The notes beneath the pieces were generated by a model. It did no database searches, was not told the DNA's origin, and worked only from the letters and a program-made list of their open reading frames with translations. Positions 2,785 to 17,265 of a stretch of DNA of 35,281 nt are shown piece after piece. Position numbers and translations under genes: made by a program. Numbering within the stretch: position 1 is the stretch's first letter; each line of letters begins with the position of its first letter. This stretch comes from Bdellovibrionota bacterium FG-2. Its GTDB lineage: Bacteria > Bdellovibrionota > UBA1018. The stretch lies in contig JBBCAV010000042.1 of NCBI GenBank assembly GCA_051382305.1, positions 1-35,281 of the forward strand. The letters are read 5' to 3'.

Positions 2785-3333
2785 ATGAAAAAGCTTTTTT
2801 GGATCGATCTCGAAATGACCGGCTTGGATGAGAAGTCGGATTCCATCTTGGAAGTGGCGGTGGTCGTCACGGATATGGACCTTAATCCCGTAGAGGAATT
2901 TCATCGCGTGGTCTTTCAGCCCCCTGAGGTTGTTGAGAAAATGAACGATTGGTGCAAGAAAACTCACGGAGAGAGCGGCCTGACGCAAGCTATCCCAGGA
3001 GGGACGCCCCTTGCGAAGGTGGAAGAAGAGTTGATTGCTTTGGCAAATCGGCATTTCAGTACCAAGGATCGAGTGGTCTTGTGCGGCAACTCGGTCGGAA
3101 ATGATCGCCGATTTATCGACAAATACCTGCCTGAGTTTGAGAAACACCTCCATTATCGGCTCATCGATGTGAGCTCATTTAAGGAGATTTTCCGGGAAAA
3201 GTACGCAGTTTCTTTCGAAAAGAAGAATGCGCATCGGGCCATTGGCGATATTTATGAGTCGATTAAAGAATTAGCGCATTATTTGTCCTTTGTCTCGGTT
3301 CCGGGTGCCCCCTCAAAGAAGGGGGCTGTATGA
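2785..3333 (+). CDS. orn: Oligoribonuclease (DEDDh nanoRNase)
   Basis: WIDLEMTGLD, CGNSVGNDRRFI, HYRLIDVSS, HRAIGDIYESIKEL. Start moved to ATG 2785, which follows SD GGGGAGG (2774-2780). Confidence 0.95.
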   Translation: MKKLFWIDLEMTGLDEKSDSILEVAVVVTDMDLNPVEEFHRVVFQPPEVVEKMNDWCKKTHGESGLTQAIPGGTPLAKVEEELIALANRHFSTKDRVVLCGNSVGNDRRFIDKYLPEFEKHLHYRLIDVSSFKEIFREKYAVSFEKKNAHRAIGDIYESIKELAHYLSFVSVPGAPSKKGAV

Positions 3334-13639: not shown

Positions 13640-13734
13640 CGCACTTTGATTTTGAAGGGCTTTTCCCGCAACGTCAAGTTCTCTCAGAAAAGTTCTTGGC
13701 AAAAACTCCCCCGACGTTTTATTCCTACTCCATC

Positions 13735-15894
13735 GTGACGTTGAATCTTAGTCGATTAAATGAAAATCAAAAAAGGGCCGTTCTCCATGGAGATGGACCG
13801 CTGCTTGTCCTTGCGGGCGCTGGGAGCGGCAAGACGAGTACGATGAGCTATCGCATCGCTCACTTAGTCGCACAGCGAGGGGTGTCAGCCTCGTCGATCT
13901 TGGGGCTTTCGTTTACACGGAAGGCCGCTGAGGAGCTCAGGGAGCGCGTCAAGGGGCTTATCACTAAGGTCGCAGGGGTTCGGGCAGCGCATGGGCTTAC
14001 GGTCACGACTTTTCACAGCCTTTGCGCAAGAATTCTCCGGGCTCATGCTGAAAAGGTGGGCTATAGCAGAAACTTCACCATCATGGATCGCAGTGATCAG
14101 GTCGATGTGTTGAGGCAAATTCTAAGAAACATTAACGTCGATGATCGTAAATTTGATCCGGACGTTTTACTTTTTGAATTTGGCCAAGCTAAGAATCGAT
14201 TCCTGGGGCCTGCACAGGCCGAGTCCTTCTTTTTTGATTCCGGAAAACTGGCTAATGACTATGCCATCGTGGCGCACTCTTGTTTTGGTCGCTACCAAGA
14301 ACAACTCAAGGCCCTCTCGGCGATGGACTTTGATGATCTGCTATTTTCTGCGGTCACGCTCTTGGAGAATTCGCCCGAGGTACGAGCGGATTATAATCAG
14401 AAATTCCAGTATATCTTGGTTGACGAGTATCAAGATACCAATCCCGCTCAATCGCGGCTACTGAAACTCTTGACAGAAAGTAAGCAAAACATTTGTGTGG
14501 TCGGTGATGACGATCAATCGATTTATGCATGGCGAGGCGCAGATCCCACTCACATCTTAAACTTTGGTGAGCACTATCCTGGCGCGCGCGTCCTGACTTT
14601 GGATCAGAACTATCGCAGCACGACGACGATTTTAAATGCCGCCAATGAAGTGATTGGCAAGAATCGAAACCGGCATCCCAAATCCCTTTGGTCCGATCGT
14701 GGCGAGGGCGAGCCTATCGAGATGATTATGGTGGATGGCGATCGCGCCGAAGGCGAAGTGGTCGCTGAGGAGATTCTGAAACGCGCGCGTGAAGTGAATG
14801 AGGGGGTGATCAGGCAAAAACGGCCCTGGAAGGATTTTGCTATCCTCTATCGTAGCAATCCCCAATCTCGAATTTTTGAAGAGACGCTTCGTATGCGAGG
14901 AATTCCTTACAAGATAGTGGGCTCCATGTCTTTCTTGAATCGGAAAGAAATCAAAGACGTGCTCTCTTACTGGAAGCTCATTTTGAATCCAAAAGATGAC
15001 TCTTCTGCCAGACGGATTCTCAATTGGCCCTCGCGCGGAGTGGGTAAGACAAGTCTCGAGGTGCTAAACGCGCAAGCCGTTGAAAAAGGGATTTCTTTTT
15101 TCGAAACTTTGGGCCAGGCCCGCGATTTAACCACCAAGGCCGCCACAGGCGTCGCAAGTTTCAAGACTCTCATTGATAAGATGCGAACGGAACTAGAAAC
15201 CTGCGAGATCTCTCGCCAGGGCTTAGCGCTTTGGGCAAAGCGTTCGCTGGAACTCATTGGCGTAAAGCAAGGCTTTGAGCAGGACTCTGATGACGCTAAA
15301 GAAGTTGCGCGTAAAATGGATAGCGTCGATGAACTTGCTAATGCTGTGGGACAAATGAATCTGGCGGACATTCTCTCTTCGGAAACCGAAGCGGGCGGTG
15401 TCGCAACGAACGGATTGGATGTATTGCGGGAGTTTATTATCCGGATGACTCTTGATTCGATCGATGAGGCGGAGCGGGATGAAGAGAAGCAGGAACTAAA
15501 GGATCAAGTAACGCTGCTTACGCTCCATGGGGCGAAGGGGCTCGAATACCCGATTGTATTCTTAGTAGGGATGGAGGAGGGCTTGCTGCCCCATCGTCGT
15601 GTGATTGAAGAGTGCTCGGATCTAAGTGAGGAGCGCAGGCTCTGTTATGTCGGCATCACGCGAGCTCGGGATCATCTGATTTTAACTCGTGCAAAGAGTC
15701 GCATTCGATACGGCAAAGAAGTGCCCCGAAATCCGAGTCGGTTCTTGGAAGAAATTCCTGCAAATCTTTTAATCACTCGAAACGAATCTTCAACTCCAGA
15801 TTTGTCTTCAAAAGAGGCCTGTGAAAAACACGAGGCCAAAGTGAAGGATTACTTGGGTGCGATCCGCGCGCAGCTCATGGCCAATAAGAAGTAG
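13735..15894 (+). CDS. UvrD/Rep-family SF1A helicase (Rep-like, no C-terminal Tudor domain)
   Basis: LAGAGSGKT, FTRKAA, DEYQD, VGDDDQSIYAWRGA, QNYRS, TLHGAKGLEY, EERRLCYVGITRA. Start uncertain (GTG 13735 or TTG 13741). Confidence 0.93.
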   Translation: MTLNLSRLNENQKRAVLHGDGPLLVLAGAGSGKTSTMSYRIAHLVAQRGVSASSILGLSFTRKAAEELRERVKGLITKVAGVRAAHGLTVTTFHSLCARILRAHAEKVGYSRNFTIMDRSDQVDVLRQILRNINVDDRKFDPDVLLFEFGQAKNRFLGPAQAESFFFDSGKLANDYAIVAHSCFGRYQEQLKALSAMDFDDLLFSAVTLLENSPEVRADYNQKFQYILVDEYQDTNPAQSRLLKLLTESKQNICVVGDDDQSIYAWRGADPTHILNFGEHYPGARVLTLDQNYRSTTTILNAANEVIGKNRNRHPKSLWSDRGEGEPIEMIMVDGDRAEGEVVAEEILKRAREVNEGVIRQKRPWKDFAILYRSNPQSRIFEETLRMRGIPYKIVGSMSFLNRKEIKDVLSYWKLILNPKDDSSARRILNWPSRGVGKTSLEVLNAQAVEKGISFFETLGQARDLTTKAATGVASFKTLIDKMRTELETCEISRQGLALWAKRSLELIGVKQGFEQDSDDAKEVARKMDSVDELANAVGQMNLADILSSETEAGGVATNGLDVLREFIIRMTLDSIDEAERDEEKQELKDQVTLLTLHGAKGLEYPIVFLVGMEEGLLPHRRVIEECSDLSEERRLCYVGITRARDHLILTRAKSRIRYGKEVPRNPSRFLEEIPANLLITRNESSTPDLSSKEACEKHEAKVKDYLGAIRAQLMANKK

Positions 15895-15897
15895 AAA

Positions 15898-16374
15898 CTA
15901 GAGGTCCTGCAGGTATTGAATGTACTGCGAGGTTTCCGGCGGATTGGCTTTTGCCTTCTTGATGATTTCAATGGCATCGGCTTGAAGGAGTTTTCCCTCA
16001 GCCATTTTTTGACAGGCAATGGGTTCAAGGGGGTCTGTATATTGATAAATGCTTTCGTGCTGAGGCCAGAGGTTGTCGGCTTCATTACTGCCGCCCATAC
16101 AAAGAGGGATATAATGATCGATCTTGAAATGCTCCCGGCCGGTCTTCATGATCGTAAAGCCGAGGTCATGATCGTAGGTGTCGATGACTTGCCTTTTGAG
16201 GCCCGATTTGACATCGCGGCTACAGTAAGCGATTTGTTCGGGGTAACGAATCTTGCTCGCTCTCTGGCACAGGGAACCCGGAGTGAGCTGGGCGTCGGGG
16301 GAAGTTGGAAATGCATCAGCTGCGAAGAGAGGGATGCTTATGAACAACGAGAGAACCGCACATAAATTCCACAT
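15898..16374 (-). CDS. Secreted HNH-type (beta-beta-alpha-Me) nuclease
   Basis: Signal peptide (...SIPLFA|AD), IDHYIPLCMGGSN...NLWPQH motif, and four Cys in the mature chain. SD GGAG is 7 nt upstream of the ATG. Confidence 0.8.
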   Translation of the reverse strand: MWNLCAVLSLFISIPLFAADAFPTSPDAQLTPGSLCQRASKIRYPEQIAYCSRDVKSGLKRQVIDTYDHDLGFTIMKTGREHFKIDHYIPLCMGGSNEADNLWPQHESIYQYTDPLEPIACQKMAEGKLLQADAIEIIKKAKANPPETSQYIQYLQDL

Positions 16375-16381
16375 ATAGAGT

Positions 16382-16447
16382 CTCCAAATAGTCAGGCAAG
16401 GGTGCCTGGTAGAAACGCCAACCCGTCATGTTGGCTTATACTTAGAA
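16382..16447 (-). ncRNA. Purine riboswitch aptamer (guanine-type, C74), short-L3 variant
   Basis: The minus strand reads UUCUAAGUA-UAA-GCCAAC-AUGACGG-GUUGGC-GUUUCUAC-CAGGCA-CCCU-UGCCUG-AC-UAUUUGGAG, i.e. P1, J1/2, P2, L2, J2/3, P3, L3, J3/1, P1'. The junction sequences match the purine riboswitch core exactly. Confidence 0.9.
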
Positions 16448-16578
16448 GCTGTCGGGTAAATAAGTCTCTTTGGGGCAGGGTTTTGTCAAGGTTTCAGTGT
16501 CAAAGGCCTTTACAGTTGCTGTCTTGTTATCAATCAGGGCGGGGGGTGTCTGTTTCGTAGGCAGAGGGAGTTTTGCCG

Positions 16579-16591
16579 TAACTTCTTGATT
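16579..16591 (-). promoter_or_regulatory. IHF binding site consensus
   Basis: Minus strand AATCAAGAAGTTA matches WATCAANNNNTTR; about 40 bp upstream of the sigma54 -24 box. Confidence 0.6.
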
Positions 16592-16631
16592 TTGTGAAGG
16601 GAAGTTGCGGCAGTGTCTTTTTGAACCCATG

Positions 16632-16647
16632 TGGCACTTGGGTTGCA
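16632..16647 (+). promoter_or_regulatory. Sigma54 (RpoN) -24/-12 promoter
   Basis: TGGCAC-ttggg-TTGCA is a perfect TGGCAC-N5-TTGCW match, 50 bp upstream of ATG 16698. Confidence 0.8.
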
Positions 16648-16697
16648 CTACTCCTCTGTGTAGTGATGAGTTTGGATAAATAGTAACAGGAGTAGTT

Positions 16698-16928
16698 ATG
16701 AAAAAGAGAATCATGTTGTTGATTGCGTTTGGCGTGTCGTTTGCGCCACCGGTTTTGGCTTTTGAGCCGAGTCGAGCTCCCATTGAGTCGGCTCGTCTTG
16801 GCGAAAACTCGGTCTTGGAGACGACGGCAAGTGCCATCAACTGTAAATTTGCGGATCTAGAAAAATCAGTTGATCAAGATAAATCCGAGGCAAGGGTGAA
16901 ATCGATCTCTGCAAATAGCGCCGAATAA
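16698..16928 (+). CDS. Small secreted hypothetical protein (76 aa)
   Basis: SD AGGAG, MKKR followed by a hydrophobic signal peptide ending VLA; sigma54 promoter upstream. Confidence 0.75.
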   Translation: MKKRIMLLIAFGVSFAPPVLAFEPSRAPIESARLGENSVLETTASAINCKFADLEKSVDQDKSEARVKSISANSAE

Positions 16929-16938
16929 GTTTTTGGTT

Positions 16939-17265
16939 TCAGCGCGAGTGCTGAATCAGAGACTGTAGTTTTCGGCGTTCCGCGGGCGAAGCCTCATCGT
17001 CGTTATCCCGAAAACTGCGGGATGATGTCGAAGACTTCTGGCTGCCATTGCGAGCATCGCCTAGGAGATGACTGGCCCAGCTGCGCACCGGACTGAGGAT
17101 GGGCGGGAGCCATTGGTTCGTCGCCGTCGCGTGTTCTGCTTGTGCGAGTCCAGTTCGGACTTGGTCTGAAACTGTTTTCCCATCCCAACGAATGAGGTGG
17201 CCCAATACAAGCACAGCGACGGAAAAGAAAATGAGTTTGAACCCAAGTCCAATAAGCCTAAGCAT
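16939..17265 (-). CDS. Membrane-anchored hypothetical protein
   Basis: N-terminal TM helix; SD GAGGA; overlaps the upstream gene end, so likely the last gene of the lon-cheY run. Confidence 0.7.
   Translation of the reverse strand: MLRLIGLGFKLIFFSVAVLVLGHLIRWDGKTVSDQVRTGLAQAEHATATNQWLPPILSPVRSWASHLLGDARNGSQKSSTSSRSFRDNDDEASPAERRKLQSLIQHSR

Follow-up and report, generated by a model that had tools for sequence, protein, structure and literature searches.

Aptamer and gene at the locus

The stretch of DNA analyzed here, referred to as the window, comprises 35,281 nucleotides of contig JBBCAV010000042.1 of Bdellovibrionota bacterium FG-2, and contains a purine riboswitch aptamer whose P1 helix holds the Shine-Dalgarno (SD) sequence of a gene for a candidate secreted nuclease. 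All positions follow the numbering of the window, and minus-strand elements are read 5′ to 3′ toward falling coordinates. The aptamer (Rfam RF00167, 16369-16463, minus strand) was the single match above the gathering score, which is 37 bits for this family, when the whole window was scanned with Rfam cmscan. It spans model positions 1-102 and scored 46.4 bits, with an E-value of 7.6e-05, or of 1.4e-06 when the search was limited to positions 16300-16950. The coding sequence that it precedes (15898-16374, minus strand) is an open reading frame for a 158-residue candidate nuclease of the secreted, HNH-like (beta-beta-alpha-Me) type. Within its own assembly (4.34 Mb in 433 contigs, 85% complete) the aptamer is the sole copy recovered, as no second one was found by the Rfam model, nor at E<=1 by a phylum-specific covariance model that was trained on Bdellovibrionota aptamers and includes the window sequence.

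The aptamer forms a three-way junction of the helices P1, P2 and P3, all on the minus strand. P1 is built from the 5′ strand UUCUAAGUA (16439-16447) and the 3′ strand UAUUUGGAG (16382-16390), and the latter contains the SD sequence GGAG at 16385-16382. Its pairs are A16439-U16390, U16440-A16389, G16441.U16388, A16442-U16387, A16443-U16386, U16444.G16385, C16445-G16384 and U16446-A16383, with U16447.G16382 as a possible ninth; eight of the nine are drawn by Rfam, three are G.U, and all four bases of GGAG sit within the helix. P2 (16417-16435) consists of the stem GCCAAC/GUUGGC and the loop L2, AUGACGG. The joining strand J2-3, GUUUCUAC (16409-16416), carries the ligand-pocket residues U47 and U51, and P3 (16393-16408) pairs CAGGCA with UGCCUG beneath a shortened L3 loop of 4 nt, CCCU. 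The specificity base C74, of the guanine type, lies at 16391.

Reading on from GGAG, 7 nt (16381-16375) separate the SD sequence from the ATG start codon at 16374-16372, which stands 17 nt after C74 and is the first possible start of its frame. A TTG alternative was rejected; it would remove the signal peptide, it has no SD sequence, and it had been chosen only because the script mis-anchored on the short L3. Between the aptamer and the ATG we found no terminator-like site on the minus strand, where the sole such site lies at 15737-15725, and a promoter scan returned no sigma-70-like site upstream of the aptamer on that strand. The encoded protein begins with a signal-peptide-like segment (residues 1-18, MWNLCAVLSLFISIPLFA, encoded at 16321-16374, minus strand) followed by ADAFP. 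This call comes from a heuristic that combines the 10-residue hydrophobicity maximum (2.63, at residues 5-14) with small residues at positions -3/-1, and it predicts cleavage after LFA (residue 18), ahead of AD. Further along lies the motif D86-H87 ... N97 ... N101 ... H106 (16057-16119, minus strand) typical of HNH domains. The original prediction, made from the letters of the window, had described a purine riboswitch with a G-U-rich P1 that holds the ribosome-binding site, a GGAG exactly 7 nt before the ATG with no terminator in between, and a signal-peptide-bearing HNH nuclease gene. The placement of the GGAG is right in every detail, the aptamer is borne out by the Rfam match, the start codon stands where it had been put rather than at another position, and the description of the protein agrees with the sequence features.

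Purine aptamers across Bdellovibrionota

The original prediction had also proposed a survey of the genes that follow this motif across the phylum, and we report the outcome of one for 151 Bdellovibrionota genomes, drawn evenly and covering 100 genera and 25 families. The search recovered 33 purine aptamers in 24 of the genomes, which fall in 16 genera and 8 families, and the first long open reading frame after each aptamer was taken as its downstream gene. The surveyed genomes are related to one another and not independent, so the counts describe a pattern and carry no statistic. A member of the same HNH family, the window gene included, follows 21 of the 33 aptamers (BLASTP E 1e-22 to 1e-65). 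Endonuclease I (PF04231) follows seven, five of which were tested against Pfam (E 1e-32 to 1e-36), with L024 and L026 assigned by N-termini near-identical to that of L023. Three more aptamers precede genes of the endonuclease/exonuclease/phosphatase (EEP) family, one precedes an EamA transporter (L047), and one precedes a 195-residue secreted protein that is a candidate PD-(D/E)xK nuclease (L052). A signal-peptide-bearing nuclease is thus found downstream of 31 of the 33 aptamers, or of 32 when the PD-(D/E)xK candidate is counted, and a purine biosynthesis gene downstream of none in the 151-genome sample.

The HNH family itself is larger than its riboswitch-linked portion, with 61 genes in 52 of the 151 genomes. 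Searching a large protein collection with the window protein gave 911 relatives at E<=0.001, of which the few that are named are annotated as HNH endonuclease or hypothetical protein of Bdellovibrionota, Oligoflexia or Bacteriovoracia. Among 21 genomic loci of such relatives, six have an RF00167 match immediately upstream; the other 15 have none (11 searched at E<=10 and four at E<=1). In addition, an Elusimicrobia contig (L022) carries a c-di-GMP-I-GGC riboswitch at 2357-2436 on the minus strand (64 bits, cut-off 59); a distant HNH-family homologue is encoded some 560 nt off on the other strand, and the riboswitch faces away from it.

The 33 survey aptamers and the six from the loci of protein relatives together make a set of 39, which was aligned with MAFFT, with the P1/P2/P3 structure written from the Rfam alignment. 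In this alignment standard pairs occupy 90.1% of the cells, compared with 69.1% in shuffles, and pairing falls to 33-40% when the partner columns are slid by one to three positions. Indeed, 18 of the 20 helix pairs change on both sides, including all six pairs of P2, where 97% of the cells are paired. P1 is formed by alignment columns 10-17 with 75-82, which covary, and the covariation takes in columns 12-15 and 77-80, where the helix overlaps the SD sequence (CG 18 and AU 14; AU 14, UG 8, CG 6 and UA 5).

The placement of the start codon is just as regular. In all but one of the 39 aptamers it follows C74 at a distance of 13-19 nt, which places the SD sequence (GGAG, GGAGG, GGGG or GAGG) within the P1 3′ strand. 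The sole exception is the leader of the EamA transporter gene, in which the start codon stands 54 nt after C74. The geometry seen in the window, being shared by 38 of the 39 aptamers, is not a matter of chance.

Among the single residues, U20, A21, U22, A23, G37, G38, G46, U47, U49-C53, C60, C61, C74, U75 and A76 are invariant in all 39 aptamers. The J2-3 strand thus keeps G46, U47, U49, C50, U51, A52 and C53 throughout and U48 in 38 of 39, and the pairs A21-U75 and U20-A76 are likewise invariant. The roles of U22, U47, U51 and C74 as pocket residues have been described (PMC8872408, PMC9295807), and a C or a U at position 74 specifies guanine or adenine, respectively (PMC8872408). Since these four residues are invariant in 39 of 39, we assign the pocket by its sequence to the guanine type, and neither to the 2′-deoxyguanosine-II (2′-dG-II) nor to the adenine type. 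The window copy has all four, retains G37/G38 and C60/C61, and shows standard pairs at 20 of 20 helix positions, the highest count in the set.

Three loci of the survey stand out. At L052 (G024:C1:1805400-1806900), a purine aptamer with its SD sequence in P1 precedes the 195-residue secreted-type protein; the family of this protein has 110 relatives with invariant E46, D81, E97-x-K99 and four invariant cysteines, and its AF2 model (predicted local distance difference test score, pLDDT, 94.5) finds as best neighbours nearly all restriction-endonuclease-fold nucleases, with weak scores (Foldseek E at least 0.0098). L047 (G024:C1:402214-405311), the sole purine aptamer in the survey that is not linked to a nuclease, has the J2-3 strand GUCUCUAC (U48C) and a 54-nt spacer to its EamA-family gene, and so has a different platform, possibly of the ON type. 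Finally, at G126:C1:384767-385696 and its counterparts L024 and L026, all of them from complete genomes with a size near 3.8 Mb, the aptamer sits on just one of three Endonuclease_1 genes, with a product of 289 residues. This size is close to the 32 kDa or so that a 59-kDa mCherry fusion implies for Bd3507 (PMC7925074), and the riboswitch-linked 289-residue Endonuclease I is possibly the orthologue of Bd3507, a lead that is based on size and unconfirmed. No Endonuclease_1 (PF04231) was found in the assembly of the window (G000, 85% complete) or in a genome of the same family (G041). Because its own assembly yielded none, the HNH protein may be the main riboswitch-linked secreted nuclease in the lineage of the window.

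Predicted mechanism, alternatives and surroundings

Taken together, these observations suggest a guanine-class purine riboswitch with no expression platform outside the aptamer, as the P1 3′ strand doubles as the SD sequence of a monocistronic gene whose product would be a Sec-exported, disulfide-bearing nuclease of the HNH type. We infer that when guanine (or hypoxanthine) is abundant, the ligand at the three-way junction would lock P1, hide GGAG from the 30S subunit and lower translation. Under purine scarcity P1, a weak helix with G.U pairs, would breathe, and the nuclease would be made and exported. Salvage of the nucleotides freed in this way would raise guanine and shut the nuclease off again, which amounts to product feedback on the breakdown of nucleic acid from prey or other outside sources. 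The unit would form part of a phylum-wide Bdellovibrionota regulon in which minimal aptamers sit on three unrelated Pfam-recognized nuclease folds and one candidate fourth.

We read the switch as translational and OFF because the SD sequence is itself one strand of the ligand-stabilized helix and nothing else stands before the start codon. Guanine would be a usable product, since the genome of the window contains three matches of the HGPRT type above cut-off, which points to purine salvage. A nearest-neighbour folding calculation, without tertiary or ligand terms and thus a soft argument, gives the aptamer fold an occupancy below 0.1 in 25 of the 39 leaders when no ligand is present, with 0.01 in the window and never more than 0.66; therefore a binding energy of several kcal/mol could shift the balance. 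Overall, we consider it reasonably likely that guanine turns translation OFF at this locus and that secreted nucleases are thereby placed under feedback control. The original prediction had arrived at the same interpretation, and as far as it can be tested in silico it is supported, with considerable added weight from the comparison across genomes, in which the SD-in-P1 arrangement is conserved and covarying among 39 aptamers and the products are, with hardly an exception, secreted nucleases. For the phylum as a whole, we regard it as evenly balanced whether the Bdellovibrionota guanine riboswitch has left purine synthesis and transport behind and serves almost solely as a satiety sensor for a regulon of secreted nucleases of three or four unrelated folds, with intracellular guanine from prey or environment stopping nuclease translation and the HNH family of about 160 residues acting as a major foraging nuclease.

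A number of observations weigh against the OFF-switch reading or qualify it, and they are set out here together with the alternatives on which they bear. To begin with, purH and purC are present in the genome of the window, and because of this the riboswitch-nuclease unit does not stand in for an absent route of de novo synthesis. A lack of purine synthesis, which the original prediction had raised as a side idea for genomes of this kind, is accordingly rejected for this genome. Moreover, the aptamer accompanies only 21 of the 61 HNH-family genes in the sample, and in G048 and G140 it sits on another nuclease gene and the HNH gene is without one.

The copy in the window also has oddities of its own, and these lend themselves to the view that it is a decaying relic, in which a deletion in L3 has crippled binding and the gene is either damped by P1 or unregulated, nearing the full loss seen in a sister lineage. 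Its L3 of 4 nt (CCCU, without AAA) is found in no other aptamer of the set, the other 38 having 5-9 nt and usually CC.UAAA; the loop-loop contact of the guanine class typically involves loops of roughly 7 nt and an A-rich L3. Its L2, AUGACGG, is likewise unique among the 39 and departs from [A/G]AUA.GG, with positions 33-34 altered. Only one of the other 32 survey matches has a lower Rfam score, the remaining 31 lying at 48.6-67.5 bits. In the closest relative (L002, aptamer segment at 2930-3003), whose protein is 77% identical, the 5′ strands of P1 and P3 and all that stood between them, about 40 nt, have been lost; it retains the promoter-proximal leader and the segment P3-3′/J3-1/P1-3′/SD, so that by its sequence the deletion would leave the SD sequence unmasked. 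An aptamer is present in one of nine other genomes of the taxonomic family to which the window belongs. Contact between the two loops is important for ligand binding, and a loop-loop mutant of the B. subtilis aptamer requires Mg2+ to bind its ligand (PMC2896527); the window copy may bind weakly owing to its truncated L3. The same study, however, reports that Mg2+ compensates for loss of the loop-loop contact (PMC2896527). Furthermore, all 20 helix pairs of the window copy are standard, its junction and every base of its pocket are intact, and G37/G38 and C60/C61, the bases of the core loop-loop pairs, are kept; because neutral decay should not have spared these positions, continuing selection is indicated. 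We therefore think it unlikely that the copy is functionally impaired, and give the relic explanation a similarly modest chance.

The switch might also respond to a purine other than guanine, such as hypoxanthine, xanthine, a nucleoside like 2′-deoxyguanosine, or a damaged base. This proposal draws on the 2′-dG-II variants, which occur upstream of endonuclease I and ComEC (PMC8872408), on the fact that the variant classes lie a few bases apart from the guanine class (PMC9295807), and on variation within our set at position 24 (A 23, U 14, G 2) and position 73 (A 25, U 13, G 1). However, the traits that define the variants are missing. 2′-dG-II riboswitches have C51, a G-C pair in P1 next to the junction and a 2-nt insertion in J3/1 (PMC8872408), whereas our set has U51 in 39 of 39, the A-U pair A21-U75 in 39 of 39, and a J3/1 free of insertions in 38, the window among these. 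2′-dG-II was accordingly excluded, and because its features are absent the predicted ligand is a base and not a nucleoside. An adenine riboswitch, which needs U74, was excluded by the C74 found in all 39, and xanthine-II, which is marked by U51G plus insertions (PMC9295807), was set aside since neither U51G nor the described insertions occur in the set. Recognition of another purine thus appears improbable to us.

A different objection concerns the protein, which might use an HNH-like fold for binding or for some other hydrolytic role in the envelope. It has no Pfam or NCBIfam match above threshold: HNH_5 reaches 15.1 bits (cut-off 27.5, E 0.022) and HNH 12.4 bits (cut-off 21.4, E 0.18), and NCBIfam returned zero matches for the 158 residues. 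A sequence-profile search of PDB with the protein gave nothing better than E 0.34. The structural scores are too weak to establish the fold, with Foldseek E at least 0.078 and VIA Z at most 4.0 (root-mean-square deviation 3.3 over 75 residues), and the n-region of the window protein has no K or R, its homologues starting with M-K/R. Set against this, HNH_5 matches at E<=0.1 appear in 34 of 35 family members (best 6.6e-05), and among the 35 sequences D86, H87, N97 and N101 are invariant, together with C36 and C51, and H106 is conserved in at least 90%. The AF2 model (pLDDT 91, predicted template modelling score 0.81) places strands at 83-87 and 102-106 followed by a helix at 107-113, and its top structural neighbours are HNH nuclease domains, namely Gme HNH, Cas8-HNH, ZRANB3 HNH, GVE2 HNH and McrA. 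In addition, the same riboswitch design stands ahead of bona fide nuclease families, and the threshold for a hydrophobic N-terminus is passed by 39 of 39 riboswitch-linked products. The protein is therefore probably an exported beta-beta-alpha-Me nuclease, and there is little chance that it is not a nuclease.

The folding calculation raises a last point. In the unconstrained fold of the window leader, UGGAGAC pairs with GUUUCUA of J2-3, with a z-score of -0.76 that is not significant, and the SD sequence has an unpaired probability of 0.19 without ligand, so that in this model it might be masked in both states. This alternative pairing needs GAC after GGA, a trait of the window that is absent from the other copies. 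An ON switch, or action on transcription or mRNA stability in place of translation initiation, could take such a minimum-energy, non-aptamer fold as its default, with a ligand outcome that is unclear, but this is very improbable given that the SD sequence lies within P1 in 38 of 39 leaders with the start codon 4-10 nt past the helix, that there is no terminator and no conserved alternative helix, and that the J2-3:SD pairing is specific to the window and not significant.

The candidate nuclease gene is monocistronic and separated by 3 nt from a convergent gene for a UvrD/Rep-type helicase (13696-15894, plus strand; UvrD-helicase E 2.2e-84, UvrD_C E 1.7e-64), which marks the boundary and lies outside the unit. 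The 323 nt upstream of the nuclease candidate are shared with a divergent open reading frame of 76 codons (16698-16928, plus strand), which has GGAG 5 nt ahead of its ATG and a signal-peptide-like start, MKKRIMLLIAFGVSFAPPVLA, and for which a Pfam search gave zero matches. The leader and divergent-promoter region (16464-16697, minus strand) aligns with that of L002, and about 65 nt of it (16611-16675) are almost identical there, while the flanking leader has diverged. This block includes a 21-bp palindrome at 16624-16644, AACCCATGTG G CACTTGGGTT, of the form 10-1-10 and 90% complementary, and a second inverted repeat, 6-8-6, at 16646-16665. The conserved palindrome block possibly serves as the operator through which a transcription factor acts on the nuclease gene, the divergent open reading frame, or both.

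Relation to known systems

In its P1/P2/P3 junction, its joining strands J1-2, J2-3 and J3-1, its residues U22, U47, U51 and C74, and the bases G37/G38 and C60/C61 of its loops, the element resembles the guanine-I riboswitch (RF00167) of B. subtilis xpt-pbuX. It differs from that riboswitch in having neither a terminator nor a separate platform, with the SD sequence inside P1, and in the window also in an L3 of only 4 nt. The add adenine riboswitch of Vibrio vulnificus is a purine-family aptamer that governs translation initiation through SD accessibility. It carries U74, works as an ON switch and sequesters its SD sequence in a helix of its own beyond P1, whereas the SD sequence here is part of P1 itself, implying OFF. 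The usual regulon of guanine riboswitches comprises purine biosynthesis, salvage or uptake (PMC9295807), whereas the targets here and throughout the phylum are secreted nucleases.

The nearest precedent is provided by the 2′-dG-II riboswitches, which are alike in being purine-family aptamers ahead of genes that deal with DNA outside the cytoplasm. They were reportedly described by Weinberg et al. in 2017. Their target genes include endonuclease I, ComEC and phospholipase D (PMC8872408), and they are attributed to Bacteroidetes metagenomic sequences (PMC8872408, PMC5473149). Their C51, G-C pair and J3/1 insertion are not characteristic of the aptamers studied here. Literature searches brought up no report in which nucleases of the Bdellovibrio type are tied to a riboswitch for guanine or another purine, and supplementary gene-association tables could hold a prior mention. 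The novelty accordingly lies in the regulon and in the minimal SD-in-P1 platform, the riboswitch class itself being known.

A sensor of this kind would govern the supply side outside the cell, where enzymes release purines from nucleic acid of foreign origin, and would do so through the simplest platform possible, an SD sequence placed in P1. If this is true, it offers a testable mechanism for the pacing of prey DNA and RNA degradation in Bdellovibrio-like bacteria, it adds an unrecognized family of secreted nucleases to the predatory tool set, and it supplies a compact natural guanine-repressed translational switch for bacteria that are hard to engineer. That a single aptamer has been taken up by several unrelated nuclease folds would also make a neat example of a regulon that evolved around a function.

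Secreted nucleases are already known from the predator B. bacteriovorus HD100, which encodes Bd0934, Bd1244 and Bd3507 of the Endonuclease_1 family and Bd1431 and Bd1934 of the SNase family, and its signal-peptide nucleases are expressed in sequence during prey digestion, as described at the transcript level only (PMC3593177, PMC7925074). Neither "riboswitch" nor "HNH" occurs in the text of these two reports, and the HNH family of about 160 residues is absent from the nuclease lists given there (PMC3593177, PMC7925074). The resemblance to our system is that these predator nucleases bear signal peptides, and of the three Endonuclease_1 genes in the complete genome G126 one has the riboswitch.

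As for the protein, the arrangement DH ... N ... N ... H on a beta-hairpin plus helix is shared with HNH or beta-beta-alpha-Me nucleases (HNH_5 PF14279, HNH PF01844; Gme HNH 4h9d, Cas8-HNH 8w1p). The window protein differs from these in falling under all curated thresholds, and in three elements specific to its family of about 160 residues, namely a signal peptide at the N-terminus, a pair of invariant cysteines and a bundle of helices at the C-terminus.

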